This document shows positions 1,928 through 33,244 of a DNA stretch of 35,129 nucleotides, one piece after another. Made by a program: the position numbers and the translations under genes. Every line of letters starts with the position of its first letter. The stretch's first letter is position 1. The notes beneath the pieces are model-generated. The model was not told the DNA's origin, searched no databases, and saw only the letters and a program-made list of their open reading frames with translations. The stretch comes from Pseudomonadota bacterium (GTDB lineage: Bacteria; Desulfobacterota; Desulfobacteria; Desulfobacterales; ETH-SRB1), in the NCBI GenBank assembly GCA_018897415.1, contig JAHIKR010000064.1, forward strand, positions 1 to 35,129, read 5' to 3'.

Positions 1928-1935
1928 CTTTCAAA

Positions 1936-1963: not shown

Positions 1964-2035
1964 GCAATAAATTCTAAATAAGGAATTCCTGGAAGCACTG
2001 TGGAGCGGAGAGTATTTATAGTTGGCTGCAAAACG

Positions 2036-2060
2036 ATATAAAAGAAAATTATGACTGAAA
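2036..2060 (+). repeat. Exact 25-bp direct copy of the GxxExxY leader and start codon region
   Basis: atataaaagaaaattatgactgaaa is identical to 1535-1559. It lies 20 nt upstream of the ATG of the next gene (2080). Confidence 0.85.
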
Positions 2061-2079
2061 GAGGATGTTTTTGTAATAG

Positions 2080-4381: not shown

Positions 4382-4529
4382 GATGAATTCGTAAAAAGGC
4401 AAATTCATCATGTTAAGTGTTAAGTTTTAGGTGTTAAGTTCTGGAATTATATTGTTATAACAAATGCTTAAATCTTAAAACCTAAAACTTAAAACGTTTG
4501 TAAAAATCTGATTTTCAGACTTTTTACGA
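4382..4529. repeat. Long imperfect palindrome / structured repeat upstream of the regulator gene
   Basis: Outer arms tcgtaaaaag (4389-4398) / ctttttacga (4520-4529). Inner arms taagttttaggt / acctaaaactta. Local hairpins gatgaatt...aattcatc (4382-4409) and gtaaaaatctga-ttt-tcagactttttac (about 4499-4527). Confidence 0.6.
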
Positions 4530-7825: not shown

Positions 7826-8146
7826 ATGGACAAAAAAAGCAAAGATTTGATGGATTTTATTTCCGGGGCTATTGATCACTTAGATGTGAGCGGCTTTGAA
7901 GCGCTTGAAATTCTGGATGTTCGTAGTCGTCTTGCATCAAGGGAGCCTCTTCTTGATGAGCAGGACAGGGCGCGTCTGGAAAGATTGGACCGCCAGTTGC
8001 TGCAAATGGCAGATTCTCTAATAGAATGTATCTCAGAAGTTGCGAATCTGGCAGAAATGCGGAGAAGAGCACATATTCTTCCATCTCATTGGTGGTGGTA
8101 TCTGGATGGAATTACTTCTGACAACCGCAAGGTCGCCGAAGGATAG
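7826..8146 (+). CDS. Hypothetical protein (contains the SHWWWYLD motif)
   Basis: 106-aa ORF with protein-like composition. No family was recognised. An upstream overlapping 39-codon ORF (7731-7850) would fuse to it with +1 A in the A7 tract at 7832-7838. Confidence 0.4.
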   Translation: MDKKSKDLMDFISGAIDHLDVSGFEALEILDVRSRLASREPLLDEQDRARLERLDRQLLQMADSLIECISEVANLAEMRRRAHILPSHWWWYLDGITSDNRKVAEG

Positions 8147-8173
8147 CAGCTATGCTCCAAGCTCTTGCCTCTT

Positions 8174-8203
8174 CACTTAAAACTTAATCACTTAAAACTA
8201 AAA
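8174..8203 (+). repeat. Two units of the 15-bp motif CACTTAAAACTTAAT
   Basis: cacttaaaacttaat cacttaaaactaaaa. The same unit is tandemly repeated at 9000-9059, and the surrounding sequence (8161-8218) is also homologous to 8986-9075. Confidence 0.8.
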
Positions 8204-8296
8204 ACTATGCTTTCTTCCGGTAGGCTGAGGGTCAAAAAATGGAAATTAGTCTGAAAGCGTGTTGCAAGTCATATTTGCAAATGATAAACGGGATTT

Positions 8297-8608
8297 GTGA
8301 TGAAGGAAGTTAAGTTTACAGTAATGCTGACGCGAGAGGACAGATACCGCCACCACCATGTACGATTTAGAAAAGACGTTCTCAGTTTTGTCGTACAATA
8401 TGAGACAAAGGTGGAAGAAAAATGGCTTCCAGTCGTAAGATATGATACAAGGCATGGCTTTGCTCATCGGGATCTTTTGGATAAAAAGGGCGAAAAACAA
8501 AAGACGCCTATTCTTGCCGAAGACTACAGCGAGGCCCTGACATTTGCTGAATACGATATCAAATCTAATTGGAAAATGTACAAACAGCATTTCATGGTAG
8601 GAGGTTAG
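8297..8608 (+). CDS. Small hypothetical protein, first gene of a tightly coupled pair
   Basis: 103-aa ORF whose stop lies 1 nt before the next ATG. The motif VVRYDTRHGFAHRD is faintly reminiscent of the RYDN..HH motif of TumE/DUF6516-type toxins; this is unverified. Confidence 0.55.
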   Translation: MMKEVKFTVMLTREDRYRHHHVRFRKDVLSFVVQYETKVEEKWLPVVRYDTRHGFAHRDLLDKKGEKQKTPILAEDYSEALTFAEYDIKSNWKMYKQHFMVGG

Positions 8609-8609
8609 C

Positions 8610-8903
8610 ATGGAGACACGAGAAAACGAGTTCTTTACCAGGAATTCCGAATTAAGTATGGAGTTCAGCAAATATGTTTTGGAACATCCCGAGATGGACG
8701 ACCTGCTGACAGAAGAAGCGGTAGTTGTGTTCCTGCCAGAATTTGATGCAGAACTGGCGGATTTCAACTCAAGAATGGCAAAGGAAATTGAAGGTGAAGG
8801 CGGCAGGGTGCTTTATGTGAAGGTGAAACAGATGGCCCCGAAGATCTTTTCCAGGCTGATGGGGGTTGAAGTTGGAGTTGCACGGTCACAACTTGAACAT
8901 TGA
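8610..8903 (+). CDS. Small acidic hypothetical protein, second gene of the coupled pair
   Basis: 97-aa ORF starting 1 nt after the stop of the previous ORF, which implies translational coupling. No family was recognised with confidence. Confidence 0.55.
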   Translation: METRENEFFTRNSELSMEFSKYVLEHPEMDDLLTEEAVVVFLPEFDAELADFNSRMAKEIEGEGGRVLYVKVKQMAPKIFSRLMGVEVGVARSQLEH

Positions 8904-8999
8904 GTACTGGTTCCATGATCTTTCACGGCTTACCGCAGATTTCTGTGCGGAAGCATCTTTTTGCTTCCAAGGCTGGATGTCTTTGGCTCTCTTCCTCTT

Positions 9000-9059
9000 G
9001 CCTTAAAACTTAATCACTTAAAACTTAATCACTTAAAACTTAATCACTTAAAACTTAAC
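9000..9059 (+). repeat. Tandem repeat, 4 x 15 bp (CACTTAAAACTTAAT), ending 3 nt before the aldo/keto reductase ATG
   Basis: gccttaaaacttaat / cacttaaaacttaat / cacttaaaacttaat / cacttaaaacttaac, read directly from the sequence. Confidence 0.9.
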
Positions 9060-9062
9060 ACT

Positions 9063-9956
9063 ATGTTCTTTCCTCATCTTGTCTTAGGCACAGCGCAACT
9101 TGGTCTTCCCTATGGCTTAGCCAACAAGGTAGGGCAACCTGACCAGGCTGTTGCAATTACTATAATCCGTGAAGCTTGGAAAAATGGGATTAGGGAATTT
9201 GATACAGCTCAGGCATATGGGGACAGCGAAAAGGTTTTGGGGAAGGCTCTTTACGAATTGGGCATATCAAGCGAAGCAAAAATCATAACTAAATTCCATC
9301 CGAATTTGGATCATCTGAACGCTTCAGATATGTCGAGAGCCTTGGATGAATCTCTCGAAAGGCTTAGGGTCCGAAGTCTTTATGGTATTATGCTGCACAG
9401 GGAGGAAATGCTTTCCTTATGGAATAAAGGTTTAGCGAAAATTCTTCATGCCTTTATTTTGTCCGGTAGAGTTGAAAAAATAGGTATCTCCGTCTATTCA
9501 CCAGATAAAGCTATACAGGCTTTAAACACCGAAGGTATCAGTATGGTTCAACTTCCGACCAATATCGTGGATAGAAGATTTGAAAATACAGGCGTATTTA
9601 AGCTATCAGATGAAAAGAAAAAACAGATTTACATCAGAAGCGTTTTTCTTCAGGGGCTGCTACTAATGAATCCGGAAGAAATTTCGGATAAAATGTCATT
9701 TGTCAGGCCAATAATTAAAGAAATACAAACGATTTCAAATAATATTGGATTGTCACAGCAGGAAATAGCGCTGGGTTACGTGAAATCAGAGATGCCAAAC
9801 GCTCATGTGGTTTTTGGCGCAGAATCTTCTGAGCAGGTAAAGAGCAATATAGCCTGTTGGAGAAAAAACATTCAACAGAATCTGGTTGATATGATTAAAC
9901 GTAAATTTGATGATATTGACGAAGTTATTTTGAATCCTAATTTATGGCCAAAATGA
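9063..9956 (+). CDS. Aldo/keto reductase
   Basis: From the ATG at 9063 the protein reads MFFPHLVLGTAQLGLPYG...REFDTAQAYGDSEKVLGKAL, a typical AKR N-terminus. The ORF-track start at 8961 (TTG) would translate the 15-bp tandem repeat and is unlikely. Confidence 0.8.
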   Translation: MFFPHLVLGTAQLGLPYGLANKVGQPDQAVAITIIREAWKNGIREFDTAQAYGDSEKVLGKALYELGISSEAKIITKFHPNLDHLNASDMSRALDESLERLRVRSLYGIMLHREEMLSLWNKGLAKILHAFILSGRVEKIGISVYSPDKAIQALNTEGISMVQLPTNIVDRRFENTGVFKLSDEKKKQIYIRSVFLQGLLLMNPEEISDKMSFVRPIIKEIQTISNNIGLSQQEIALGYVKSEMPNAHVVFGAESSEQVKSNIACWRKNIQQNLVDMIKRKFDDIDEVILNPNLWPK

Positions 9957-10735
9957 TGAATATTGTTGCAATACTTCAAGCTAGGATGGGATCATCACGC
10001 CTGCCTGGGAAAGTGCTAAAGCCGATACTCGGCCGCCCAATGTTGGAACATCATATAGAGCGGATAAAACTGAGCAGTAAAATTAACCGAATAGTTGTCG
10101 CCACCAGCATTGATCCAGCGGATCAAGCAATTGTTGATCTCTGCCGGCAGATAGGAATAGAATCTTTTGAAGGTGAACTTGAAAATGTCCTAGATCGTTT
10201 TTACCAAGCAGCAAGACTATACAAATCGGATCATGTGGTTCGCTTGACCGGTGATTGTCCATTGGCTGATCCACATTTAATAGACGAATTAATTGATTTT
10301 TACTTCGTTCAGAAATGTGATTATGCCAGCAATTGTTATGAACCAACTCTGCCTGACGGGCTTGACGCCGAAGTTTTCTCCTTTGCAGTTCTGGAACAGG
10401 TATGGAAGGAAGCCGTGTTGCCATCCCATCTGGAACATGTTACCCCTTTTATTTACATGCATCCGGAAAGGTTTAAAATAAAGAGCCATAAGTATCATAC
10501 AGATTTATCACATCTCAGGTGGACGGTTGATGAATATGAGGATCTGGAATTTGTTAGGCGGATATATGAAATACTTTATCCTGTAAAACCAGATTTTTCG
10601 ATGAAAGATATTCTTCTCCTTCTTGAAAAAAATCCAGAACTTGCGGAAATCAACAGGCGTTTTAAAAGAAATGAGGGTGCGAAGAAGTCGATTGAAAAGG
10701 ATAAGCAATTTCTTGCGCAAAAGCACAGCCATTAG
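9944..10735 (+). CDS. SpsF-type cytidylyltransferase (CTP_transf_3 family; candidate CMP-nonulosonate synthetase)
   Basis: N-terminal AILQARMGSSRLPGKVLKPILGRPML, plus RLTGDCPL and a LRWTVDEYEDLEF tail. The start may be ATG 9944, 9953 or 9956, and it overlaps the AKR stop (9954-9956). Confidence 0.75.
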   Translation: MAKMMNIVAILQARMGSSRLPGKVLKPILGRPMLEHHIERIKLSSKINRIVVATSIDPADQAIVDLCRQIGIESFEGELENVLDRFYQAARLYKSDHVVRLTGDCPLADPHLIDELIDFYFVQKCDYASNCYEPTLPDGLDAEVFSFAVLEQVWKEAVLPSHLEHVTPFIYMHPERFKIKSHKYHTDLSHLRWTVDEYEDLEFVRRIYEILYPVKPDFSMKDILLLLEKNPELAEINRRFKRNEGAKKSIEKDKQFLAQKHSH

Positions 10736-10759
10736 TATTGATCAAAATGGAGATTGAAT

Positions 10760-12871
10760 ATGGAAAGAGAAAAAATTACTATATATCTTGCAGAATTGGC
10801 TCACAATGGTTTTGGACTTAGCTTGAATACCATTCCCTTGGGTATAGGAAGTGTTGGAGCCTACAGCAAAAATAAATATGGTAATCAAATTGAAATACGT
10901 TTGTTCAGACAATTTGAAGACTTAATGAATGCTATATCAGATTTGCCGCCACATATTGTTGGCTTAGGATATTTTACATGGAATGACAATTTGACGCTTG
11001 CGGCCTTAAAATGTGTGAGGGAAATCAGTCCCGATACCCTGATTGTTCTCGGTGGCCTCAACATAACTATTAAAGGGTGGGAGAACACAACAAATAACGT
11101 TACCTCTAAAAAAAGGAAACCTTGTGATGAATACGCAAGAAAATATGATTTTACACTGCTTAATAATAATGCAGATATCGATATTATTGTACATGGAGAT
11201 GGGGAGGTTCCCTTTTCAAACATTATAGAAAAAATGATGGATTCCGCAAATCGATTACAAGTAAAAAGCCAGCCTATCGATGGGTGTACTACATTAGTTG
11301 ATGGAAATTTACTTGCAGGCAAAGTGGTTTCACCTTTGCTTGACCTGGATGTTATACCTTCTCCTTATATAATGGGCTTATATGCTGAATTGTTTGAACG
11401 ATATCAGTTAGTCCCTCAAGTTGAGTCTGTAAGGGGATGTCCTTACAATTGCACCTACTGTACGATTGGCGGAAATATTAATAAGCTGAGAAAACATAGT
11501 TTAGAATATATTAAGGAGGAGATCTTATTTCTTAAAGACAACAGCCCTAACAGAATTTTAAGAATAGCGGATTCAAATTGGGGTATTCTGAAAAGAGATG
11601 TCGAGTTGGCCGAGTTTATCAGGGAATTACATAATTCCACTGGCTACCCAAGTTCATTGAGAGTCTATTACGCAGAAAAAGGCCCTTTTGAAAATGTAAG
11701 AAGAATGGCGAAGACACTGAAGACTTTGCTGCCTTTGAATATGAGCTTCCAGACCTTAACAAAGGAAGTTTTGAAAAATGTTAAAAGACAAAACATGCCG
11801 ATTTCTAAGGTTAAGGAAATGGTTAAATTTGCTCATAGCAATAATATATCCGTTTCTACTGAACTTATTTCTGGACTACCAGGAGAAACATATCAGTCTT
11901 TCAGGGATGTATTCTTGGAAACCGTAAAGCTCAACTTTGATAGCGTTTATGTTGGCACCCTTTATTTAACAAAGGGTGCAGAATTATATACGGATAGAGC
12001 TAGGAAACAGTACGGTTTGAAGACAAAATATGTACTTCTCGGCAATAATATTACAAAACTTAATTCTCGTTATGTCATTGACGCAGATGAAGTTGTGACC
12101 GAGTCAAATAGAATATCTCTGAACGATTTTTGGGGACTTCATAAGTTCAATTTTTTTATTTTTTCATGTTATGGTGCAGCGTTCTTGAAAGAGATCATTA
12201 TGCACTGTATCAATTATCAGATAACGCCATTAGACCTATATGATGAATTATGTGAAAGGCCTGATTGTTACCCGTTTTTTAACGAAATCGCCGACAAATA
12301 CATGACAACTGTGAAAACAAAATACTTTGACACGAGAGAAGAACTTGAGGAAGCGGTATCAAAAACTATTAAGAAAAATGGTAATATTAATGAATTCAGC
12401 GTATATAGGCAGTGTTTTTATCGCCTTGGAAGGATTGCTAGTAGCCGATACAAACATTTATTTATCTCTGATTTTGTAAAATCTGCACGCTCAATTTATG
12501 ATAAAAATAGAAACAAGAATGAAGATGATAAATTTCACTCCATTCTGGATATGCTTGGTGATTTAGCAATAGATGTAATAATTTCGCCCCTGGAAGAAGT
12601 AAAAAAGGAAATTGTAAGATCATATAACTATGATTTAATAACATGGGCAAAGGACGATTATAAAAAACCTTTATCGGGATATAATTTAAAAAAAACAAGA
12701 AGGTTTTCGCTATGCGTCAGAAATATAAATGAGCATAGAGAATTATCTAATAAGACAAAAGGTTGGGGTGACTTAGAAAAATATGCATTTTATTTTACAA
12801 CTGTTGTTTCATCTAATATGAGGCGCTTAATTAAATATACTCATCGCGAAGACAGCGCCATCATTGAATAG
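10760..12871 (+). CDS. B12-binding-domain radical SAM enzyme (class B-like), large 700-aa form
   Basis: CxxxCxxC cluster RGCPYNCTYC with a preceding cobalamin-binding-like Rossmann region (IVGLGYFTW...LIVLGG). The ATG at 10760 follows GGAGA (10749-10753); the ORF track begins at TTG 10754. The gene is visibly more AT-rich than its neighbours. Confidence 0.8.
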   Translation: MEREKITIYLAELAHNGFGLSLNTIPLGIGSVGAYSKNKYGNQIEIRLFRQFEDLMNAISDLPPHIVGLGYFTWNDNLTLAALKCVREISPDTLIVLGGLNITIKGWENTTNNVTSKKRKPCDEYARKYDFTLLNNNADIDIIVHGDGEVPFSNIIEKMMDSANRLQVKSQPIDGCTTLVDGNLLAGKVVSPLLDLDVIPSPYIMGLYAELFERYQLVPQVESVRGCPYNCTYCTIGGNINKLRKHSLEYIKEEILFLKDNSPNRILRIADSNWGILKRDVELAEFIRELHNSTGYPSSLRVYYAEKGPFENVRRMAKTLKTLLPLNMSFQTLTKEVLKNVKRQNMPISKVKEMVKFAHSNNISVSTELISGLPGETYQSFRDVFLETVKLNFDSVYVGTLYLTKGAELYTDRARKQYGLKTKYVLLGNNITKLNSRYVIDADEVVTESNRISLNDFWGLHKFNFFIFSCYGAAFLKEIIMHCINYQITPLDLYDELCERPDCYPFFNEIADKYMTTVKTKYFDTREELEEAVSKTIKKNGNINEFSVYRQCFYRLGRIASSRYKHLFISDFVKSARSIYDKNRNKNEDDKFHSILDMLGDLAIDVIISPLEEVKKEIVRSYNYDLITWAKDDYKKPLSGYNLKKTRRFSLCVRNINEHRELSNKTKGWGDLEKYAFYFTTVVSSNMRRLIKYTHREDSAIIE

Positions 12872-12907: not shown

Positions 12908-13216
12908 TCATCCGCACATGATCAAGGAAAGAATCGACATCGAAGTGAGCTCTGCACGCTTTATATGTGCGAAAATCCGAAAAAGTTTTATCTTCAACGT
13001 CTTCATCCGGAATCGTCTAAGGTCCAGAGGCCTGATATTCGCTTAACCGTAGATTATCCGGAGGATTTAATCGTTGCACGAGAGGTTTATGAATTTCTTA
13101 AAAAACCGGGCGAATACATTAATGTTGCAGACATTATTGATTATATGGATGCCTATCCAAAATTGAAAGAATTGAACGGATGGATTGACGCCGGTATAGG
13201 AAGAATATGGAATTAG
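12908..13216 (+). pseudogene. C-terminal fragment of a second SpsF-type cytidylyltransferase
   Basis: The open frame reads ...SELCTLYMCENPKKFYLQRLHPESSKVQRPDIRLTVDYPEDLIVAREVYEFL. This parallels SHLEHVTPFIYMHPERFKIKSHKYHTDLSHLRWTVDEYEDLEFVRRIYEIL of the intact gene at 9944-10735. The N-terminal two thirds are absent. Confidence 0.65.
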
Positions 13217-20838: not shown

Positions 20839-22821
20839 ATGAAATTGGATTTTTTGTGCAAGATGAAAAACAAAAGAATCTTTTTTGAGAAAGTATCTTT
20901 TATCCATTATCCTCTCTTATTCTATTATTTATGGAGAGGATATGATATATATGTATTTGATTTTACATATAATATGAAAAAATCCAAATTATTACGATCT
21001 CTTATAAATAGAGAAAAGGTTATACGGATTTATATTAAATCCAGTACAAAAGAACATGGACTCGCAATTGATCAAACAGAAGTCATTTACAACCACCTTA
21101 AAAATGAAAAGATAATACGGATATTATCCGATCTTTATAAAACTACAGAAACGGACTTAGCTTTCAAAAAAATATTATTAAATGAGGTATTTAAACATAT
21201 TTATATAAACCAATATCTAAGCGATGAGGAGAAAGAACAAAAAGATTCTTTTGATATATTCTTTGTTCCTCATAATTACAATTTTTATGGGAAAATAATT
21301 AAAGATTACGGTAATTATAATATGAGGCCACTAAGAAAAATAAAAATAAATAAGTGGTTTTCATATATTTTCCCCTTTGTCGAAAGTTACGATAAACTTA
21401 AATGGCGTTTGGTGGCATTGTTTTATATTTTCCCAAAGATAGCATTGTTGTTCTTAGCAAGATTGTGTGCAGCGAAATCTTCATCGAAAGCCCACTTTAA
21501 GTATGCCATTCCCATAGATCAAATATTTCAGATTAAGTTCAATGGCAAAAGAAGCTTTGATTTTCTATTAGATTATGAAGAGATTAATAAAAAAAATACG
21601 ATTTTTATTCTCAACTATGCAGTTGATAAAGATTGGTTGGCTGAGCAGAAAGAAAAGGGATATTATTTTTTGAACACAAAAAATAATTTTAATATTCATC
21701 AGATGACAAAATTTCATTTGTCGGGCAAGTTATTACGCCTTACTTTTATGAGCCTAGTAAAAATGCTATTTGCAAGCACTTCTCACGTGCCATTTTTAAT
21801 TTGCTTCGTATATGGGATGAACATTTTTATTAAATGGAATATAATTTTTAATCAAATTTCCGCTGAAAATTATGTGTATACAAATCAAGAGGGAGTTGCC
21901 CAAATATTGATCAATATTCTTGTCGCAAAACATGGTGGGGCAACCTGGAATTATTCTTCATTCATTGGCGGAGGATTGCTTTATTCTAGGGACAATGATT
22001 TTAATGATTGCAGACATATCCTTTGGGCTTTTCTTAATAGTGATCACTTTCTGGCGGTAAACCGGGATGTTGTTAAGTATTATAGACTGCATCATCAGAA
22101 AATCCGCAATTATCATATCATAGGCAATATTTATTCTGAGATGGTTCGAGAGGAAATGGGAAAAATTAATAAGAAGGAATTCATTATCCAGTATTATCAT
22201 AGGCATTTTGCCAATAATATGAAAATTGTCGTTTACCTTGATACAACTTTTGTCGATGATGACAATGTATTTACTTCTTATGATGACGCAATAGCATCCT
22301 ATCAAGATATGCTTAGATTGCTCGATGAGCGAGAAGAACTTTTAATGATAGTTAAACCTTCCAAGAATGAGGATTTTTTTATCTCACCTTTAAGACAATG
22401 GTCTTCACCTGAAAAAGGAAAAATAATTATCGGCCTGTGGGAAAGTCTTAAGACTCATGAAAGAGTGTATTGGGCGGGCCACGCAGGTGATCTTCCTAAA
22501 ATTATGGCGATTAGCGACCTCGTTATCACGCATTGTATGTCTTCGCCCACGGTTGAAGCCCTTGGAGCAAGAAAAAAAGCCTTCTGGTATGAATCAGGTG
22601 ATAAGCATAGGGGGCTTGCATATGATAAAATTCCACAATTAGTGATTCATGGATACCATGATTTGAAAAAAAGAATTGAATATCTTTTATATGAAATTAA
22701 TGATGATGAATATGATGAATATTTGAACAAAAATATTAAATCCAAGATTGAATACCAACTTGATGGATTAGCTTTAACAAGATTTCGAAAGTTAATCTGC
22801 GCTGAAAAGAATAATCATTAA
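20839..22821 (+). CDS. Large orphan protein with a GT-B-like C-terminal half (candidate acidic-sugar transferase)
   Basis: 660 aa, very AT-rich and Lys/Asn/Ile/Tyr-rich, with a few hydrophobic segments. The C-terminal pattern is LMIVKPSK ... ISDLVITHCMSSPTVEALGARKKAFWYE. Confidence 0.55.
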   Translation: MKLDFLCKMKNKRIFFEKVSFIHYPLLFYYLWRGYDIYVFDFTYNMKKSKLLRSLINREKVIRIYIKSSTKEHGLAIDQTEVIYNHLKNEKIIRILSDLYKTTETDLAFKKILLNEVFKHIYINQYLSDEEKEQKDSFDIFFVPHNYNFYGKIIKDYGNYNMRPLRKIKINKWFSYIFPFVESYDKLKWRLVALFYIFPKIALLFLARLCAAKSSSKAHFKYAIPIDQIFQIKFNGKRSFDFLLDYEEINKKNTIFILNYAVDKDWLAEQKEKGYYFLNTKNNFNIHQMTKFHLSGKLLRLTFMSLVKMLFASTSHVPFLICFVYGMNIFIKWNIIFNQISAENYVYTNQEGVAQILINILVAKHGGATWNYSSFIGGGLLYSRDNDFNDCRHILWAFLNSDHFLAVNRDVVKYYRLHHQKIRNYHIIGNIYSEMVREEMGKINKKEFIIQYYHRHFANNMKIVVYLDTTFVDDDNVFTSYDDAIASYQDMLRLLDEREELLMIVKPSKNEDFFISPLRQWSSPEKGKIIIGLWESLKTHERVYWAGHAGDLPKIMAISDLVITHCMSSPTVEALGARKKAFWYESGDKHRGLAYDKIPQLVIHGYHDLKKRIEYLLYEINDDEYDEYLNKNIKSKIEYQLDGLALTRFRKLICAEKNNH

Positions 22822-24355: not shown

Positions 24356-24417
24356 GAAGTAAAACGATTCTTTGAAGCCAGAATGGAGTAACATCGTAAG
24401 ACAGAAAGGGATTTATT

Positions 24418-25437
24418 GTGGATATGAATTGTAGAATATTAGCCACGTTGGGGCCGAGTTCATTGCGGCAGGATATTATCTCGCAGATTGAGAATGAATA
24501 TTTATATCTTTTTCGCATTAATCTATCACATACACCAATCGATTCATTAGCGGATATCATAAGCAAAATTCAAAGCTACACCGAAATTCCTATCTGCTTG
24601 GATTCCGAGGGAGCACAGATTCGGAATCAATCGGTGACCAATGGAAAAATATTCCTTCATAAGGATGACGCAATAAAAATCCATTTCAATGAAATTCTGG
24701 GGGATTCAAAGAATCTATCTTTTACACCTCCTAATATAGCCGAGCAGCTAACTGTGGGTGACGAGATGAGTATTGACTTCAATTCAACTCGCATCAAGAT
24801 CATTGAGAAACACATGAAATACTGTAAGGCTAAGGTAGAACATGGGGGGAAGGTTGGTAGTAACAAGGCTGCCACCCTGAACAGGGAAATTGATATGGAA
24901 GCGATTACTTCCAAAGATAAGAAGGCAATCACGATTGCGAAAGAAATGGGGATCAAATATTTTGCTTTGTCTTTTGCCGGATCAAGTGAAGACGTCAAAA
25001 CGATGCGTGAACTCGCAGGAAGAGATGCGACCATCATTTCAAAAATTGAGAGCAAGAAAGGTGTTCTTAACCTCAATGATATAATAGATGCAAGTGACGA
25101 AATTCTTATTGACCGAGGTGATTTATCCAGAGAGATTAATCTTGAGAAGATTCCATTTCTACAAAGGAGAATAATTGCAATGGCAAGATCAAAAAAAGTG
25201 CCTGTATATGTTGCCACAAATCTCCTCGAGTCAATGGTAAAAGTGCCGGAGCCCACAAGGGCGGAAATTAATGATGTGGTAAGTACATTGTTAATGGGTG
25301 CAAATGGATTGGTTCTAGCCGCTGAAACCGCCATAGGAAAATATCCTGTAAAAGCTGCAAAGATGATTAAAAAGCTCATAAGCCAAACAGAAAAGTGGAC
25401 ATCAAATACCAGTATTACAGAATTACTAGAGAGTTGA
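24418..25437 (+). CDS. Pyruvate-kinase-like enzyme lacking the C-terminal regulatory domain
   Basis: ILATLGPSS...FRINLSHT, DSEGAQIR, KIESKKG, IDRGDLSREI and PTRAEINDVVSTLLMGANGLVLAAETAIGKYPVKA match the pyruvate kinase barrel motifs. It is only 339 aa. The likely true start is the ATG at 24424 (MNCRIL). Confidence 0.75.
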   Translation: MDMNCRILATLGPSSLRQDIISQIENEYLYLFRINLSHTPIDSLADIISKIQSYTEIPICLDSEGAQIRNQSVTNGKIFLHKDDAIKIHFNEILGDSKNLSFTPPNIAEQLTVGDEMSIDFNSTRIKIIEKHMKYCKAKVEHGGKVGSNKAATLNREIDMEAITSKDKKAITIAKEMGIKYFALSFAGSSEDVKTMRELAGRDATIISKIESKKGVLNLNDIIDASDEILIDRGDLSREINLEKIPFLQRRIIAMARSKKVPVYVATNLLESMVKVPEPTRAEINDVVSTLLMGANGLVLAAETAIGKYPVKAAKMIKKLISQTEKWTSNTSITELLES

Positions 25438-25492
25438 CAAAAATAGGCAATATCAACAGTTTTTAAGAAGAACTAACTATAGGTTAATAACT

Positions 25493-26056
25493 ATGTGCCG
25501 GGTGTATAACAACGGTAATAATGTTTTTTGGATAATGGGTCCCACAGCGAGCGGTAAAACGACTTTAGCCAATATCATTCTATCAAAGTTACGGGAAAAT
25601 GATACACTGGCTATTCATTATGATGGCGATGAGGTGCGAGATTTCTTTGGTCTGAGTCTTGGCTTCGAAAAAGCGGACCGGCTGAAGGTTGTCAAGACGA
25701 TTGTTCATCTTTCAAACAAGGCCATTGATGCCGGCCTAAACGTAATTATTTCCGCTTTAACTGCTAACCAGGATGCACGGGATTATGTGATACGGAATGT
25801 GAAAAATTTAATACTTATTTATCTTGAATGTAGCATCAAAAAATGTATGCAAAGGGACACTAAGGGCCTCTACGAAAAAGCGGCAAATAAAGAAATAAAC
25901 ACCGTTATCGGTTATAATGATGAATACTTGGCGCCGGAAAATCCAGATATTATCATTAATACAGATGAGAAATCGGTTGAAAGCAGTGCTCTCGATCTTA
26001 TGGAACGACTTCGCGAGCGTGGAATTATAAAAAAACCTTTCCAGAATTTAATCTAA
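25493..26056 (+). CDS. cysC: Adenylyl-sulfate (APS) kinase family protein
   Basis: P-loop GPTASGKTT, YDGDEVR and ISALTANQDARDYV resemble the CysC motifs (GxSGSGKST, LDGDNxR, SFISP). The substrate cannot be inferred from sequence. Confidence 0.65.
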   Translation: MCRVYNNGNNVFWIMGPTASGKTTLANIILSKLRENDTLAIHYDGDEVRDFFGLSLGFEKADRLKVVKTIVHLSNKAIDAGLNVIISALTANQDARDYVIRNVKNLILIYLECSIKKCMQRDTKGLYEKAANKEINTVIGYNDEYLAPENPDIIINTDEKSVESSALDLMERLRERGIIKKPFQNLI

Positions 26057-26101
26057 ATCTTCCATTAACAACAGGCTGCTAATGAAGAACATTTTTTTAG
26101 A

Positions 26102-26175
26102 CCTAAAGATACGCTCCTCGCTATTGGGAAATTCTCAATCTTGAGTTAATGAGATCGCTGATGAGTTCTATTGTG
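26102..26175 (+). repeat. Direct repeat copy 2 (pseudo wzx 3' end plus the true start of ORF 26149)
   Basis: Reads ...LKIRSSLLGNSQS* followed by ATGAGATCGCTGATGAGTTCT. It mirrors LKTRSLLGNSQS* plus atgggattgctgatgagttct at 24285-24355. Confidence 0.85.
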
Positions 26176-28023
26176 ATTATACATAGTCTATCACGTGCAC
26201 GGCATTTCTTGAGCACTCAGCCGCGTCACTTGCTTGGCAATGGACGTTATTTGGCCTTTCCGACTTCTACTACCCTAATGGTTATCAAGTTTTTGGAAGA
26301 TCTTGGTATAAAGGCGTTTCTTCCATGCCCTATTTCTAAAGAACGGCGCGACAAATTTCTGCGTGATTATATTGATATAATGGATGTACTGGCAGATCAA
26401 AACGGTCATGAGCTGCAATGGTGGGCTACCGATCTGGCTTCAAAAAATCGTTTTACTTCTCCTCTATTTGGGCTTCTAGATGCGCTTGTACGTTGCCATG
26501 ATGCTATAGACAAGGTATCTGGACAAAGACAATTGTTAGTTCTTATCCATCCGCCCTGGCCGGTAGTGCTTTCCCTGGAAAACTCAGCCAAGATTTGTGA
26601 GTGGGACTTGAAGATTCTATCATCGCCTATTTCAAAGTACCTTGCTCGATATCGAGGCAAGGCTAAAACATGGATGAGTGTTCTTATGGGGGGTTTTTCT
26701 TCTCTCTTTCGCATTTGGGAAACAAGACGTTGCTTCGGACTAATGCATAGGAAGAAAGAAAAAAATAAGCCGATTTATTTAATAAAGAGTTTTGTATATC
26801 CTGGCTCATTTTCCAAAGATGGTCTCTTTCATGACCCTTTTTTTGGAAAACTGTCGGAATTCCTCAAAAGGTCGATAGGGGATAAGGTTGACATTCTTAC
26901 TGTAGCTGTTGGCGCAGAAAATAGGAATGAATGTTATCAACGGATGAAGTCTCTTAAAGGACAACAGGTTGTTCCGTTGGAAGCGTTTTTGAGGTATTCT
27001 GATGTCCTTAAGGCGCTTCTGCATATATGGTGGAGTTGTATTACCAAACCGTTTCGGATGGTGACCAAATTGTCTTTTCTTGGAAACGAAATTTCAGGCC
27101 TGGTAAAAGAGTGCCTTTCATCAGGTGGTTGGAGGATTAAGCTTTATCAATATTTACATTTGTTTGCTGCTGAGCAAATTGTCCGGACTTATCGGCTTTA
27201 CGCCTGTGCGTTAACATTTGAAGGGAACCCTTGGGAGCGTATGTTTGTCGAAGGACTGAGACGTCATTTTCCGGAAACGCCTATTTTTGGTTACCAGCAT
27301 TCAGTTGTCCCTCAAGCTGCTGCCGGGGTTTTTATCAGCCCGAGAGAAAAAAAATACTCCCCCTTGCCATCCATTGTATTAACCACGGGTGATGTCCCAG
27401 CCGGCATTATGCGGCATTACGGAATGTTATCCGACGATAGTATTCGGCCATCGTGCGCTTTACGTTATGACTATCTTTATAATATAAATTATAGGGAGAG
27501 TGGGGAGCAGAGTAGATTTCTTGTGCTTGTGGCCTTAGAAGGTGTTCTGGAGGTGCTTCCTCTGCTTGAATATGTGTTTGATCAGGCTCCAAAATGCTCA
27601 GATGCCATTTTCCGCATTCGCGCACATCCGGTAATGCCTTTGCCGGAAATTCTAAGTAAACTAGGCAGGAGGATAGACCCGGAGGGGAATATTGAGACTT
27701 CCTCAGGTGGGACGGTGGCCAGTGATGTAGAGAAGAGTTCTGCAATTCTCTACTGGGGGACAACCGTGGCATTAGAAGCTTTAATGATGGGGAAGCCTCT
27801 AATACACTTTGATCGGGGTGATTTGCTCAGCTATGACCCCTTGTTCGAATTTAACGATTTCAAGTGGACCGTAGGAAAAAACAAGGATCTTCACACTATT
27901 CTGGAAGAAATCCGAAACCTGCCTGATGAAAAGCATGCTGTTTTGAGTGAGATAGGAAGAAACTATATTAGTTCGTATTTTAATAAAGTTAATGAAAAAT
28001 CCATAAGCAAATTCCTTCCTTAA
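26149..28023 (+). CDS. Large orphan protein with a GT-B-like C-terminal half (candidate Kdo/NulO transferase)
   Basis: 624 aa. The pattern TFEGNPWE ... GYQHSV ... FRIRAHPV ... ILYWGTTVALEALMMGKPLIHFD recalls HP-motif sialyl/Kdo-type or capsule-synthesis GT-B enzymes. By eye the layout parallels ORF 20839. Confidence 0.55.
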   Translation: MRSLMSSIVIIHSLSRARHFLSTQPRHLLGNGRYLAFPTSTTLMVIKFLEDLGIKAFLPCPISKERRDKFLRDYIDIMDVLADQNGHELQWWATDLASKNRFTSPLFGLLDALVRCHDAIDKVSGQRQLLVLIHPPWPVVLSLENSAKICEWDLKILSSPISKYLARYRGKAKTWMSVLMGGFSSLFRIWETRRCFGLMHRKKEKNKPIYLIKSFVYPGSFSKDGLFHDPFFGKLSEFLKRSIGDKVDILTVAVGAENRNECYQRMKSLKGQQVVPLEAFLRYSDVLKALLHIWWSCITKPFRMVTKLSFLGNEISGLVKECLSSGGWRIKLYQYLHLFAAEQIVRTYRLYACALTFEGNPWERMFVEGLRRHFPETPIFGYQHSVVPQAAAGVFISPREKKYSPLPSIVLTTGDVPAGIMRHYGMLSDDSIRPSCALRYDYLYNINYRESGEQSRFLVLVALEGVLEVLPLLEYVFDQAPKCSDAIFRIRAHPVMPLPEILSKLGRRIDPEGNIETSSGGTVASDVEKSSAILYWGTTVALEALMMGKPLIHFDRGDLLSYDPLFEFNDFKWTVGKNKDLHTILEEIRNLPDEKHAVLSEIGRNYISSYFNKVNEKSISKFLP

Positions 28024-28313: not shown

Positions 28314-28703
28314 ATGAAAAGAATAACTGAGATTATGCGGTCAGGAGAAAATAATGCAGTATCAAATAAGGATGCCTGTTTTAGAGAAGTCTTGGAGATA
28401 ATGGATGCCAAGCGTCTTGGTGTGGTTTGTATTGTGGATGAGGGAAAACTGATAGGAATAGTGACTGACGGAGATCTCAGACGACTCATTCTAAAAACAC
28501 AGGATACCTTGCCTGACCTTTTTATGAAGAAAGTTAACAAGATTATGACTCTAAACCCAAAAGTTATCTCATCTGAGGCAAGTCTTGAAGATTGCCTTAA
28601 TATGTTAAAAAAACACAGATTTTGGGTTATTCCGGTGGTTAATGAAGAGCAGATGCTTCTGGGAGTTGTGCATATGCAGGATCTGCTTGAAGCACTGATA
28701 TAG
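28314..28703 (+). CDS. Stand-alone CBS-pair protein corresponding to the C-terminal part of KdsD/KpsF arabinose-5-phosphate isomerase
   Basis: ITEIMRSGENNAV...LGVVCIVDEGKLIGIVTDGDLRRLIL...IMTLNPKVI...VIPVVNEEQMLLGVVHMQDLLEA matches the KdsD CBS region. There is no SIS domain, and an in-frame stop lies 2 codons upstream of the ATG. Strong RBS AGGAGG. Confidence 0.75.
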   Translation: MKRITEIMRSGENNAVSNKDACFREVLEIMDAKRLGVVCIVDEGKLIGIVTDGDLRRLILKTQDTLPDLFMKKVNKIMTLNPKVISSEASLEDCLNMLKKHRFWVIPVVNEEQMLLGVVHMQDLLEALI

Positions 28704-29618: not shown

Positions 29619-30389
29619 ATGAAAAAAAGAGTTGTAGCTGTTATTCCTGCCCGCATGGGATCATCCAGATTTCCGGGTAAACCGCTAGCTATGATCCTCA
29701 ATTTGCCCATGATCGAGCATGTGCGCAGAAGGGTTTGCCTTTCCGACGTCATAGACGATGTCTATGTAGCTACATGCGACCAAGAGATCTTCGATGTCGT
29801 CATCCGTTTTGGCGGTAAAACGGTCATGACCAAGAATACCCATGAACGCTGTACGGACAGAGTTGAGGAGGCAGCTCACGAGATTGACCTGGATATTGCC
29901 GTTATGGTTCAGGGAGATGAGCCTCTATTTATGCCGGAGGCTCTCGCCAAGCTGGTTGAACCAATGCTTGTTGATGATTTGCTGCCATGCACAAATCTAA
30001 TTTCAGTGATTCATAATGATGAAGATTTATCCGATGTGGATATCGTAAAAACTGTGCTGGATGAGAAGGGCTTTGTTATGTATTTTTCAAGGTCTCCTGT
30101 TCCACATATACGCGTCCAAAACGACTGCCCACTCTTTCGCCAAACGGGAGTTTCTGCCTTTACAAAGTCCTTTCTGCATACCTATTCCAAGCTTCAGCCT
30201 ACGATGCTTGAGGTGGCGGAGTCCGTAGATTTTTTGCGTATTATAGGGCACCGATATCCGATCAAAGGAGTCATATACGATCGCGTCTTAGTAGGAGTGG
30301 ATCGTCCCGATGATATTGGTAAGGTTGAGAAAATTCTGAGCGAGGATCCTGAACAAAAAACACTCTATGAGAGAATACTGAATATATGA
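29619..30389 (+). CDS. kdsB: 3-deoxy-manno-octulosonate cytidylyltransferase (CMP-Kdo synthetase)
   Basis: VAVIPARMGSSRFPGKPLAMI, VMVQGDEPLF, 256 aa, RBS GAAGGAG. Confidence 0.85.
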   Translation: MKKRVVAVIPARMGSSRFPGKPLAMILNLPMIEHVRRRVCLSDVIDDVYVATCDQEIFDVVIRFGGKTVMTKNTHERCTDRVEEAAHEIDLDIAVMVQGDEPLFMPEALAKLVEPMLVDDLLPCTNLISVIHNDEDLSDVDIVKTVLDEKGFVMYFSRSPVPHIRVQNDCPLFRQTGVSAFTKSFLHTYSKLQPTMLEVAESVDFLRIIGHRYPIKGVIYDRVLVGVDRPDDIGKVEKILSEDPEQKTLYERILNI

Positions 30390-30595
30390 ACAAAAAAATA
30401 TTTGTAGCCTTATCAACTTTTGCTGAGTATGGGGATGACCCGTTAAAACTTCTTGAAGAAAGCGGGTTAGAGTATTCTTTGAACTCCTTGGGCCGTCGGA
30501 TTGTCCGGGAGGAAATCATCGAGATGGGCAAAGACGCGACCTGGATTGTTGCTGGAGTTGAGCCTTACAATACCCATATGAGGAGGTATATTTAA
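30386..30595 (+). pseudogene. N-terminal fragment (about 60 aa) of a D-isomer-specific 2-hydroxyacid dehydrogenase (phosphoglycerate-dehydrogenase-like)
   Basis: KIFVALSTFAEYGDDPLKLLEESGLEYSLNSLGRRIVREEIIEMGKDATWIVAGVEPYN fits the N-terminal substrate-binding lobe of this family. The frame then ends after THMRRYI, and the NAD domain is absent. ATGA overlap with the kdsB stop. Confidence 0.5.
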
Positions 30596-30600
30596 ATCGT

Positions 30601-31995
30601 ATGAATATTCTTTTTGTTATCACAAATATTAATGGTACTTATAACGATGCTTATTCTTTTGGATTAGCTTCAATAGCAAGCATTACAAGAGATAAAGGGT
30701 TTAATTATGATATTAAGGTTATTAATAAAATTGAAGATTATGATGACTTATTTGATGCAGTTGAAAGGATAAAACCAAAAGTAATCGGATATTCAAGTGT
30801 ATCTTCTCAATTTATGTTTGTAAAAGATATTTCATCAAAAATAAAGGCAAGATTTCATGATAACATAATACAGGTTTGCGGTGGTATTCATCCAACAATT
30901 TATCCTGAATGTATCCTTGAAACGGAAATGATAGACGGTATTTTTATAGGTGAAGCAGAATATGCATTTTCTGATTTTTTGGATAGGGTATCAAATGGTA
31001 TACCTTACAAAGATGTAAAGAATTTTGCATATAACAATAATGGCACTTTAGTGAAAAATAGTTTGTATCCGCTAGAAACTGAATTAGAAAAGCTCCCATT
31101 TCCTGAAAGGGAAAAATATGGATATGATCGATTCGTAAAGAGAGATGGAATTGCTCATTTCTTATTTGCTAGGGGATGCCCTTACAATTGCAGTTTTTGC
31201 TGTAATCAGGCTAAAGCGCAAACTTACAATATGCGCATAAATACACCAAGATACAGATCTCCTGAAAGCTCCATTGAAGAGATTAAGCGGTTGTTAAAGA
31301 AATTCTCTTTTAGTAAAATTTTTATTTCAGATGATACATTTGGTGTAAATAAAAAATGGATGAGAGAATTTTGCAATAAATATGCTAAAGAAATAAGATT
31401 GCCTCTATGCTGTCAACTGCGTGTTAATATAGTGAACGAAGAAATAATGGAATATCTAAAACTAGCTGGATGTGTTCATGTTACCTGTGGTGTGGAATCA
31501 GGAAATACCTATATAAGAAAAGAAATAATGAAAAAAAACTATAGTGAAAAACAGATTGTCAACGCATATTCTTTATTTAAAAAATATGGAATGACATCAA
31601 ATGTCACAAATATTATAGGAGTTCCACAAGATACTGTTGATACTATTTGGGACACCATCAAATTAAATAGAAAAATTAATCCTACAAGTAGTGGAGTAAA
31701 CATCTTTTATCCGTATCGTGGAACAGAGCTTGGAAATTATTGTTTTAAAAAAGGCTTGATCGATGAAGATATATTTAATAAATTTAGTACAGAACGCAGA
31801 GAGTCTTGTTTGAATTTTCCTGCTGAATTTAAGAAAAAACTTGTCTATTTCCATAGAAATTGGCAATTGCTTGTATATAAACACAGACCATTAAAATTTT
31901 TATATTACTCTTTACTAAAATACATGCCAACACCTTTATTGAATACTCTTAGATTTATAAAAAGAAGGCTCTATATGGTGTTTCCAGGGTGGTGA
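30601..31995 (+). CDS. B12-binding-domain radical SAM enzyme (class B-like), 464-aa form
   Basis: RGCPYNCSFC cluster and an N-terminal cobalamin-binding-like region (KVIGYSSVSSQF...IQVCGGIHPT). The gene is markedly AT-rich. Confidence 0.8.
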   Translation: MNILFVITNINGTYNDAYSFGLASIASITRDKGFNYDIKVINKIEDYDDLFDAVERIKPKVIGYSSVSSQFMFVKDISSKIKARFHDNIIQVCGGIHPTIYPECILETEMIDGIFIGEAEYAFSDFLDRVSNGIPYKDVKNFAYNNNGTLVKNSLYPLETELEKLPFPEREKYGYDRFVKRDGIAHFLFARGCPYNCSFCCNQAKAQTYNMRINTPRYRSPESSIEEIKRLLKKFSFSKIFISDDTFGVNKKWMREFCNKYAKEIRLPLCCQLRVNIVNEEIMEYLKLAGCVHVTCGVESGNTYIRKEIMKKNYSEKQIVNAYSLFKKYGMTSNVTNIIGVPQDTVDTIWDTIKLNRKINPTSSGVNIFYPYRGTELGNYCFKKGLIDEDIFNKFSTERRESCLNFPAEFKKKLVYFHRNWQLLVYKHRPLKFLYYSLLKYMPTPLLNTLRFIKRRLYMVFPGW

Positions 31996-32257
31996 GGTAA
32001 TATCCTCATCCAGCCTATCCAATCCGCCGAGATTATTGTATGTAACCCGTTAGATTATTTATACTTTTTATCCTCTTCCTTAAAGAATACTACGATTATA
32101 GGTAATTATATCCTTATCATCGTTCCATATTATTTTTCCCTTGCACATTCCAGATGGTCGCTGATTGAATCGCATCTTACAAACAAATTGGAATTAGGTG
32201 ACTGACAGACAAAGCGTGATAGAATATGAGCAACATGATAACAAACGATATTGACTC

Positions 32258-33244
32258 ATGAACGATACCAGGCGAAAATATACAGGCAGGGATGTGGCCT
32301 TCATAATCCCTACAAAAGATCGCCCGGAAAAAGTTAAAAATGTTTTAGAGAGTATTGCATCACAGACAATGCTATGTGGCAGGCTAATCGTAGTAGATGG
32401 CGGGCAGAGTGTGAAAGATGTTGTGATGGGCTTTTCCGATAGTTTGCCAGTGGAATATTACGAGTGCCATCCTCCAGGCCAGATTCGTCAGAGAAATATT
32501 GGAATTTCAGTTATTGACGACCGAACACCTCTGGTCGGTTTTCTCGATGATGACATTGTATTGGAGCCGCGGGCGATAGAAGCAATGGTAGCTTTCTGGA
32601 ACAAGTGTGAACCTGATACTGCTGGTGTGTCATTTAATATTATCAATAACCCTTACAGCCATTCATGGATAAGAGCTATTATTGGTATGAGTTCACCACA
32701 ACAAGGTCAGGTGCTTCGTTCTGGATACAATGTTGCCACTTCACCTGTTGCTTCCGATTTAAAAGCCCAATGGCTGTGTGGAGGGGCGACAGTTTGGAAA
32801 AGAGAAATTCTCAGGGAGTATATTAATAAAGAGATATACGCTCGTTGGGCTATTTGTGAGGATCTTATTTTCAGCTACCCGATCGGAAAAAAATACCCCT
32901 TATATGTATGTGCTGATGCTAAGGTTAGACATGAACACGCATATGATCACATGGCTAAAATGAAGTATCGATATTATGGGCGCACTGTTACATTGTGGCG
33001 TTTATATTTTGTAGAGTCTCATATTGAACTTTCCAGAGCGTTCTATTTATGGATGTTGCTGGGTCAGATTACTGCTCGATGTATATCTGGTATCATTTCG
33101 TTTCGGGCAAGTGATATTGAATATGCTATTGGCCAGATAGAAGGTGTCGTAATTGGACTGACAGCAATACTTCGCGGTTCAAACCTCTTGTCCCTCTTGA
33201 ATGAAGATACTATTAGCAAACAAAAATGTCCCCTAAAGTCATAG
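32258..33244 (+). CDS. Glycosyltransferase family 2 (GT-A)
   Basis: VAFIIPTKDRPEKVKNVLESIASQT, VVDGG and a FLDDDIVLEP DxD motif. Confidence 0.8.
   Translation: MNDTRRKYTGRDVAFIIPTKDRPEKVKNVLESIASQTMLCGRLIVVDGGQSVKDVVMGFSDSLPVEYYECHPPGQIRQRNIGISVIDDRTPLVGFLDDDIVLEPRAIEAMVAFWNKCEPDTAGVSFNIINNPYSHSWIRAIIGMSSPQQGQVLRSGYNVATSPVASDLKAQWLCGGATVWKREILREYINKEIYARWAICEDLIFSYPIGKKYPLYVCADAKVRHEHAYDHMAKMKYRYYGRTVTLWRLYFVESHIELSRAFYLWMLLGQITARCISGIISFRASDIEYAIGQIEGVVIGLTAILRGSNLLSLLNEDTISKQKCPLKS

Follow-up and report, generated by a model that had tools for sequence, protein, structure and literature searches.

How did an AT-rich radical S-adenosylmethionine (SAM) gene with a B12-binding domain come to lie directly behind the fragment of another gene in a bacterial surface-polysaccharide cluster? 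The question is raised by positions 30386-31995 of contig JAHIKR010000064.1 (assembly GCA_018897415.1), a metagenome-assembled genome (MAG) of a Pseudomonadota bacterium (GTDB: Desulfobacterota, ETH-SRB1). The whole stretch of 35,129 nt was analyzed and is referred to as the window. A preliminary description of this DNA, made from the sequence alone, had noted a truncated dehydrogenase gene between kdsB and the radical SAM gene. It had taken this gene and a first radical SAM gene further upstream to be late, independently acquired tailoring genes, each at a breakpoint marked by a gene fragment. Comparison with related loci (numbered L001 onwards; proteins P0001 onwards) indicates that 30386-31995 is probably a recombination joint in a mosaic surface-polysaccharide cluster, at which the stump of a dehydrogenase gene meets an older radical SAM module that was later lost in one lineage.

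Layout of the joint and identity of the short open reading frame

The joint and its flanks comprise the following features (window coordinates). L004 is a close relative with the radical SAM gene, L001 a close relative without it, and L008 a locus with a homologous radical SAM gene in another position.

29619-30389, + strand: KdsB-like CMP-ulosonic-acid cytidylyltransferase, 256 aa, native upstream partner of the dehydrogenase (NCBIfam NF009905, Pfam CTP_transf_3)
30386-30577, + strand: predicted dehydrogenase-derived stump, codons 1-64 of an ~310-aa D-isomer-specific 2-hydroxyacid dehydrogenase, pseudogene remnant (HMMER relatives, indels)
30578-30600, + strand: leader of the radical SAM module, with AGGAGG at 30581-30586 (block common to L004, L001 and L008)
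30601-31995, + strand: radical SAM gene with B12-binding domain (class B type), 464 aa, AT-rich (PF02310 and PF04055 above cut-offs)
31939-31995, + strand: 3′ end of the radical SAM open reading frame, present as a relic in relatives without the gene (blastn against L001)
31996-32257, no strand: hypervariable non-coding spacer of 262 nt between the radical SAM and GT2 genes (block indels and transposed segments relative to L004 and L001)
32258-33244, + strand: GT2 glycosyltransferase, conserved right flank of the variable slot (Pfam Glycos_transf_2; 92.6% nucleotide identity to L001)

All coordinates reported earlier for this arrangement, including the 262-nt gap, proved right. The kdsB stop codon TGA (30387-30389) overlaps the ATG of the short open reading frame (ORF) at 30386 in an ATGA. 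The short ORF extends over 69 codons (30386-30595) to a TAA at 30593-30595, and the radical SAM start codon (30601) lies 5 nt past it. The frame does break as described, only later than the EPYN named there. Dehydrogenase-derived sequence reaches ...EPYNTH (codon 64, nt 30577), and only MRRYI* (30578-30595) comes from the leader (ATGAGGAGGTATATTTAA), i.e. the final five codons and the TAA of the stump are read from the radical SAM leader.

A step in base composition coincides with the joint. The GC content of the radical SAM gene is 0.302, compared to 0.402 ± 0.034 in the other 26 genes of the window (z = −3.0). Its GC at third codon positions (GC3), 0.217, is the minimum of the window (0.374 ± 0.037 for the other genes; z = −4.2). 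In a 300-nt profile, GC dropped from 0.42-0.46 to 0.28 between ~30350 and ~30650 and was back up by ~32150, after the radical SAM gene. The gene is as sharply AT-rich as had been stated, with its edge at the break. Distances in relative synonymous codon usage were dropped as a codon-usage test, since they were dominated by gene length.

The stump itself had no match in Pfam (even at E ≤ 10), NCBIfam, or PDB; the only phmmer matches in PDB, to prephenate dehydrogenase (E = 0.5), were at chance level and were rejected. A word-indexed protein search returned three short proteins only (the query ORF and two relatives, of 69 and 66 aa). As this search missed proteins of 63-65% identity that an exhaustive search detected, its silence is uninformative. 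The exhaustive HMMER search (phmmer, first 64 stump residues as query, 1.84 billion representative proteins, E ≤ 1e-3) yielded 132 matches, every one at its own N-terminus (residues ~1-63). All seven full-length relatives that were scanned (310-336 aa) carry both 2-Hacid_dh and 2-Hacid_dh_C (PF00389 and PF02826). A full-length relative, P0140, matched the TIGR01327 model for phosphoglycerate dehydrogenase (PGDH) with 3.6e-67, under the cut-off of that model. Thus, by transitive homology, the 69-aa ORF is assigned as the N-terminal stump of a D-2-hydroxyacid dehydrogenase; the dehydrogenase-like N-terminus of the preliminary description holds, even though direct profile searches stayed blank.

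Compared with D-isomer-specific 2-hydroxyacid dehydrogenases (PF00389 plus PF02826; PGDH-, GhrB-, or glyoxylate-reductase-like), the stump is 44-65% identical to residues 1-63 of ~310-aa proteins, but keeps only ~20% of the protein. It holds 64 dehydrogenase codons (at most 78, in L001) against 307-330 aa in relatives, with neither the PF02826 Rossmann domain nor the C-terminal catalytic return. Since the NAD(P)-binding domain and the catalytic residues are gone, the stump is a pseudogene remnant and not an enzyme. Short forms were found only in the window's own clade (P0001-P0003, L066). This restriction to the closest relatives, together with frame-breaking indels in two of three lineages, argues for a pseudogene rather than a conserved small gene.

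Intact counterparts are found in distant genomes. A scan of the genome collection with alignment of dehydrogenase N-termini gave 52 loci from many phyla, and the ORF caller recovered the dehydrogenase in 43. In 42 of these 43 it is complete, at 307-395 aa; the single short copy is truncated where its contig ends. Directly upstream, 27 of the 43 loci have a KdsB-like gene of 55-71% identity to that of the window, and in 18 of the 27 pairs the two genes overlap by 4 nt as in the window. Identities in this range were found for the upstream gene in most of 48 other loci. The dehydrogenase is therefore no incidental neighbor, but belongs to a widely conserved, translationally coupled pair and is the native partner of such a kdsB. 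On the points at which the preliminary description might have failed, the results went its way in substance: the compositional difference is significant, homology could be demonstrated transitively, and distant loci hold full-length dehydrogenases with no conserved short ORF.

Behind the dehydrogenase lies a tailoring slot with variable content. Over the 43 loci it is occupied by a 235-aa family (10 loci), a methyltransferase (8), an acetyltransferase (7), a p624-like gene (4), a GT2 gene (3), a B12 radical SAM gene (2, i.e. L012 and L035, in two other phyla), and others; in L013, a B12 radical SAM gene lies one gene beyond the dehydrogenase. Homologues of the window's GT2 gene were detected downstream of the dehydrogenase in L011, L012, L016, L024, L041, and L047.

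In loci L011-L058 (e.g. L013 1-9000, L017, and L026), we also observed a cluster of about ten genes, spread over Omnitrophota, Chloroflexota, Planctomycetota, Elusimicrobiota, Desulfobacterota, and others. It begins with a p624-like surface-carbohydrate protein, a GFO/IDH/MocA oxidoreductase, a methyltransferase, a GmhA-like SIS isomerase, and an FSA/TalC aldolase, and continues with an HpcH/HpaI aldolase, a HAD phosphatase, two SDRs, the KdsB-like gene, the D-2-hydroxyacid dehydrogenase, and the variable slot. The product is presumably a keto-deoxy sugar acid activated by CMP. Of this cluster, the p624-like gene, kdsB, and the stump persist in the window, where a protein consisting of a CBS pair only and KdsA replace the eight intervening genes. 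KdsA was found in no other locus of the compared set, and the cluster of about ten genes lacks it. The KdsB-like protein of the window scored above the cut-offs of NF009905 (262.8 bits; cut-off 255) and NF003952 (239.8; cut-off 193), matched Pfam CTP_transf_3 with 2.3e-40, and fell narrowly under the cut-off of the TIGR00466 equivalog (146.4 vs 155.2). As its nearest relatives are encoded in clusters without KdsA, the true substrate in those genomes may not be 3-deoxy-D-manno-octulosonic acid (Kdo).

Decay of the stump and history of the radical SAM module

Close relatives display two arrangements. The window and L004, a Joint Genome Institute (JGI) contig of 93.8% identity, carry kdsB, the stump, the radical SAM gene, and the GT2 gene in the same order. 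L001, L002, L003, and L066, 91-93% identical to the window and representing one population assembled four times, carry kdsB, the stump, an ~370-nt spacer, and the GT2 gene, without the radical SAM gene.

L001 has the longest stump, which continues ...PYNTHVLKQLPKLNCINHC and matches ...VLxxLPxLKCISRC of intact enzymes; a composite stump aligns up to ...KLNCINHC (...KLKCISRC in the intact enzymes). Trimming at the joint amounts to 0 nt in L001, 27 nt in L004, and 44 nt in the window. L001 carries a +2 frameshift and L004 has indels of +1 and −4 near the start, so that 192 nt of stump display three frame-disrupting indel events and three different 3′ ends in three lineages. Between L001 and L004, there are 0 synonymous and 9 non-synonymous changes. 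For the intact genes, window versus L001, the ratio of non-synonymous to synonymous change (omega) was 0.12-0.36; kdsA and kdsB (0.12-0.17; kdsB 0.17) have no indels, and the indels of the others keep the frame. All evidence together, from indels, 3′ ends, and the changes between L001 and L004, identifies the stump as a decaying remnant.

Both edges of the radical SAM gene can be traced in the lineage that lacks it. The leader block ATGAGGAGGTATATTT is common to the window, L004, and L001, which has no gene body, and occurs also in L008 behind a different upstream gene. At the other end, blastn aligned window 31939-32082 with L001 10297-10440 (89%), and the part of this segment inside the radical SAM ORF, of which L001 keeps the last ~57 nt, encodes LNTLRFIKRRLYM.... 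As the C-terminal motif P..LW..LR..KR encoded there is conserved in radical SAM family members down to 46% identity, the segment is a true relic. Since the L001 lineage keeps the leader and the 3′ ~57 nt, the common ancestor of all sampled relatives must have had the radical SAM gene, the body of which the L001 lineage later deleted. The acquisition was thus not late, contrary to the earlier proposal, but preceded this split. In the spacer that follows (31996-32257), window 32082-32118 matches L001 10504-10540, and L004 carries an extra ~195 nt.

A perfect palindrome of 50 nt (TTCAACTTGATTATTCCCCG-cagcaagcta-CGGGGAATAATCAAGTTGAA) lies exactly at the deletion joint in L001 (10252-10301; also in L002, L003, and L066). 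Its stem of 20 bp is perfect and its loop is 10 nt long (folding free energy −21.6 kcal/mol, z = −9.2), and it is unique among the loci compared and absent from the window itself. The palindrome may have arisen as a scar of template switching or be some small palindromic element, perhaps of the REP or MITE type; its stem without bulges is unlike that of an attC site.

That the radical SAM gene behaves as a module is seen from L008. This locus encodes an 82% identical radical SAM protein in a different slot, directly after a p624 homologue and before formyltransferase and deacetylase genes. Over window 30576-31982, which spans the ORF and 25 nt of its leader, nucleotide identity to L008 is 86.7%, but the flanks of L008 are only 73% and 67% identical to the window; synonymous divergence (dS) reaches 1.67 in the flank and just 0.44 in the radical SAM gene. 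On the left, the shared block begins within ~2 nt of where the dehydrogenase-derived sequence stops, and this coincidence is the main argument for a module with a defined edge that was joined to the dehydrogenase. With omega values of 0.25 (versus L004) and 0.20 (versus L008), the gene is under purifying selection and is a working gene. In four independent contexts, the GC content of its nearest clade is 4-15 points under that of the flanks, as would fit a spread from AT-rich donors.

Several observations weigh against this picture of a decayed stump and a joined module. No integrase, transposase, terminal repeats, or target duplication was detected flanking the module, where only AT-rich repeats at chance level were seen; likewise, there is no recombinase gene in or beside it and no attC-like site at its ends. 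Low GC is also found in the PFTS gene (0.311) and in the first radical SAM gene (0.348), and the higher identity between window and L008 could partly reflect stronger constraint instead of recent exchange. Omega of the stump is not clearly neutral (0.22 for window-L001 and 0.38 for window-L004, from 13-15 changes), and its ORF is still open in the window and L004, making a translated 69-aa peptide possible. The state without a radical SAM gene counts as a single lineage, since it stems from one population assembled four times. Finally, the genome collection and metagenome contigs contained no close relative with an intact dehydrogenase (the best reached 72% amino-acid identity over the 78-aa composite stump and came from distant phyla), so that the gene may have been truncated by the insertion itself or by a deletion after the dehydrogenase and radical SAM genes had come to adjoin.

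Possibly, no insertion took place: an ancestral tandem of kdsB, a full-length dehydrogenase gene, and the radical SAM gene would have suffered one ~700-nt deletion, from dehydrogenase codon ~79 to the stop. Such tandems do exist, a B12 radical SAM gene following an intact dehydrogenase directly in L012 (Chloroflexota) and L035 and one gene further in L013, but the radical SAM proteins there are only 25-36% identical to that of the window and hence not orthologues. Gene-sized deletions also occur in the clade, as the loss of the radical SAM body in L001 demonstrates, besides the trims of 27 and 44 nt at the joint. This deletion, however, would have to end within ~2 nt of the left edge of the L008-shared block despite the different gene upstream of that block in L008, and the sharp GC step together with the excess identity to L008 over the flanks points to a separately moving module. 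We therefore regard deletion alone as unlikely. An artefact of assembly or binning, i.e. a chimeric MAG contig joining DNA of an AT-rich organism to the kdsB operon, would account for the abrupt GC step in a metagenome-assembled source. It is highly improbable, given that an independent assembly, from a JGI metagenome, contains this joint as well (L004, with 93.8% identity across kdsB, stump, radical SAM, and GT2 genes), that both module edges persist as relics in relatives lacking the radical SAM gene, and that homology to L001 resumes beyond it in the same order.

A different objection concerns the stump, which might have been retained as useful, either because translation of it conducts ribosomes across from kdsB to the start of the radical SAM gene or because the small protein has a use of its own. 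The ORF is open in both lineages that bear the radical SAM gene and ends 5-19 nt before its ATG. In L004, a distance of 17 nt separates the +1 and −4 indels, which together bring the sequence back into frame (net −3), although they may be one complex mutational event, and the omega of 0.22 between window and L001 would suit a constrained peptide. Set against this are the small number of lineages with the radical SAM gene (only two), the gene's own AGGAGG, the 3′ end of the stump that is different in all three lineages, the absence of synonymous changes beside nine non-synonymous ones between L001 and L004, and the lack of a homologous short ORF outside the clade. A retained function is doubtful on this evidence.

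We thus favor the following history for the recombination joint. The ancestor would have possessed a coupled pair of KdsB-like cytidylyltransferase and ~310-aa D-2-hydroxyacid dehydrogenase, followed by a variable slot. An AT-rich radical SAM ORF of class B type, with an ~25-nt leader carrying the ribosome-binding site (RBS), would have been joined to dehydrogenase codon ~78 by illegitimate recombination. This would have replaced the 3′ three quarters of the dehydrogenase gene, or their deletion would have come after; we infer this step. The stump would then have decayed through frame-breaking indels and trimming of 0, 27, and 44 nt at the joint. The radical SAM gene would have been kept by purifying selection, being presumably expressed from the kdsB operon, and one sister lineage would have deleted its body, with the leader, the last ~57 nt, and the 50-nt palindrome staying behind. 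Loss of the dehydrogenase was probably tolerated, as this lineage would make its ulosonic acid with KdsA and does without the set of eight genes for aldolases, isomerase, and reductases.

In mosaic O-antigen and capsule loci, such as the O-antigen loci of Escherichia and Salmonella or the capsule loci of Klebsiella and Streptococcus, gene remnants lie at module junctions. The window shares with them low-GC accessory genes, gene-sized presence and absence, truncated fragments at joints, and conserved flanks. It differs in that no insertion sequences, H-repeats, or landmarks of the JUMPstart/ops type were seen at this joint, that its host is known from an uncultured proteobacterial MAG, and that its sugars are ulosonic acids of the nonulosonic acid (NulO) and Kdo types. 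The joint is an instance of ordinary evolution of a mosaic polysaccharide locus, a recombination scar typical of such loci.

Further remnants in the locus

Three further features of the window bear on whether remnants accompany radical SAM genes in particular.

10754-12871, + strand: first B12 radical SAM gene (rSAM1), 705 aa, TokK/CysS/KedN5-like (NCBIfam KedN5 5.5e-44, under cut-off; PDB TokK 1.9e-30, CysS 3.4e-29)
12908-13216, + strand: 5′-truncated SpsF-like cytidylyltransferase remnant, 37 nt past the rSAM1 stop; callable ORF 12965-13216, 83 aa (homology to the product of 9944-10735)
28314-28703, + strand: CBS-pair-only gene, 129 aa, C-terminal part of a KpsF/KdsD isomerase, possible third junction remnant (NCBIfam TIGR00393 kpsF)

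The two radical SAM proteins share the motif and domain order, as reported earlier, with 23% identity in a pairwise alignment (E = 3e-13). rSAM1 is closest to TokK, CysS, and KedN5; the protein at the joint (rSAM2) is closest, at low scores, to AprD4, HpnJ, and BchE. As they belong to different subfamilies, independent origins are reasonable, and this half of the former claim of late, independent acquisition can stand.

Both genes do abut a gene remnant. The one behind rSAM1 can be aligned over 66 aa with residues 172-237 of the cytidylyltransferase encoded at 9944-10735 (32% identity, E = 6e-7). Its in-frame upstream extension SSAHDQGKNRHRSELCTLY matches P0254, and JGI names the homologues SpsF. 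SpsF-like fragments of 83-102 aa and 52-75% identity were also seen on the unrelated contigs L071-L073, in two of them with an AP_endonuc_2 gene directly next. Given this recurrence on unrelated contigs, the fragment may be more than debris.

The association is not specific to radical SAM genes. The CBS-only gene covers TIGR00393 model positions 155-268 of 268 (E = 1.2e-18) and has no SIS domain, nor was a SIS relic visible upstream of it. The gene lies at another module boundary and has a conserved counterpart in L001, with omega 0.36 and no indels. It may be a third remnant at a junction, or else a regulatory CBS protein that stands alone before kdsA. L001 contains a NeuB fragment beside a full NeuB, and the window and L001 differ by at least four gene-sized presences or absences. 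A methyltransferase gene after the GT4 gene is present in L001 only, and the window holds no relic of it. The remnants mark recombination joints of the mosaic locus generally and not radical SAM genes specifically; the repeated pattern of the preliminary description is real, but extends to other genes of the locus.

Another block that is absent from L001 (window 24356-26069) consists of a gene for a pyruvate-kinase barrel only (339 aa) and an APS-kinase-like gene (187 aa); in L001, the flippase gene abuts the p624 gene there. The block hints at a sulfated or phosphorylated substituent. Intergenic heptamer arrays (CTTAAAA, ACTTAAA, TGTTAAG) occur at window 4411-4495, 8175-8206, and 9002-9062. 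In the largest, a 15-nt unit is repeated 4.1 times just upstream of an aldo-keto reductase gene, giving the called ORF 8961-9956 a spurious N-terminal extension of KLNHL repeats. Two proteins of 660 aa (20839-22821) and 624 aa (26149-28023) had no Pfam match and were recognized only by Haft's "surface carbohydrate biosynthesis" models of NCBIfam (PFTS-motif model TIGR04417, 1e-21; TIGR04326, 2e-11). The PFTS gene is the second most AT-rich of the window (GC 0.311).

The radical SAM family and its contexts

The 464-aa protein belongs to the radical SAM superfamily and, by its B12-binding domain, to class B. It contains the Pfam domains B12-binding (PF02310, residues 14-126, 58.5 bits; cut-off 32.1) and Radical_SAM (PF04055, 81.2 bits; cut-off 29.5). 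The cysteines of its CxxxCxxC motif (C193, C197, and C200 in RGCPYNCSFC) are invariant across the family alignment; more than 1000 homologues of ~460 aa were collected. In Foldseek, the AlphaFold model (pLDDT 90.7) had only class B enzymes as top neighbors, namely TsrM, MgmA, CysS, OxsB, AprD4, and TokK (TM 0.63-0.70, E = 6e-22 to 5.5e-17). With these enzymes it shares the N-terminal Rossmann-like B12 domain, the CxxxCxxC barrel, and a C-terminal helical domain, but is only 16-20% identical to the characterized ones. The present gene lies in a context of ulosonic-acid and glycan biosynthesis instead of one of antibiotic, ribosomally synthesized and post-translationally modified peptide (RiPP), or hopanoid biosynthesis. 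None of the named NCBIfam equivalogs (HpnJ, BchE, ApyD, PhpK, HpnR, BzaD, and the AprD4 family) came near its cut-off (HpnJ 126.6 vs 577.6; BchE 113 vs 481).

A role as a tailoring methyltransferase is not established. The best sequence match in PDB is AprD4 (3e-16), a sugar 1,2-diol dehydratase and not a methylase. As AprD4 has the same domain, sequence and fold cannot decide between methyl transfer and dehydration; a rearrangement, too, would be possible chemistry. Judging from fold and neighborhood, the enzyme probably performs a radical modification of the ulosonic acid or glycan unit of the locus, either C-methylation or an AprD4-like dehydration.

Family members in L005, L006, L069, and L070 lie in NulO or ulosonic-acid loci with NeuB, CTP_transf_3, aldolases of the HpcH/HMGL type, HAD phosphatases, and p624/LIC12162-like proteins; the context in L074 is instead of the dTDP-sugar type. 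A constant pairing of radical SAM and GT2 genes was considered and rejected, since the GT2 of L074 is not homologous to that of the window. Fom3 of the fosfomycin pathway is a class B radical SAM methyltransferase, the substrate of which is first cytidylylated. The comparison is a lead only: a CTP_transf_3 cytidylyltransferase gene lies within a few genes of the family member in the window, L005, L006, L069, and L070, but not within the 7.5 kb of L074. The NulO-type locus L006/L007 contains three different radical SAM genes with B12 domain (1642-3129, 8001-9398, and 9443-10984) as well as one of the radical SAM/SPASM type, with genes for cytidylyltransferase and NeuB in between; stacked radical SAM tailoring genes seem common in ulosonic-acid loci. 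Full-text literature searches found no paper linking radical SAM enzymes to nonulosonic acids, and the O-antigen and cobalamin angles gave nothing relevant.

A more far-reaching reading can be put forward tentatively, although we consider it improbable as a whole. The 464-aa family would be a large (>1000 members), wholly uncharacterized clade of class B type dedicated to cytidylylated 3-deoxy-ulosonic acids (Kdo- or NulO-like) or their glycans. It would travel between the surface-polysaccharide loci of unrelated anaerobes as a bare cassette of RBS and ORF, the stump being kept open as a bridge for ribosome hand-over from kdsB.

For annotation, the 69-aa ORF is best recorded as a pseudogene remnant, derived from the dehydrogenase that partners kdsB; the radical SAM gene is best entered as intact and accessory, some close relatives having it and others not. 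The conserved cluster around the KdsB-like/dehydrogenase pair is a more useful by-product than the stump itself, and the large B12-domain radical SAM family recurring in ulosonic-acid and NulO loci is a second; both could guide work on glycan chemistry, and neither will surprise specialists in the evolution of polysaccharide loci.

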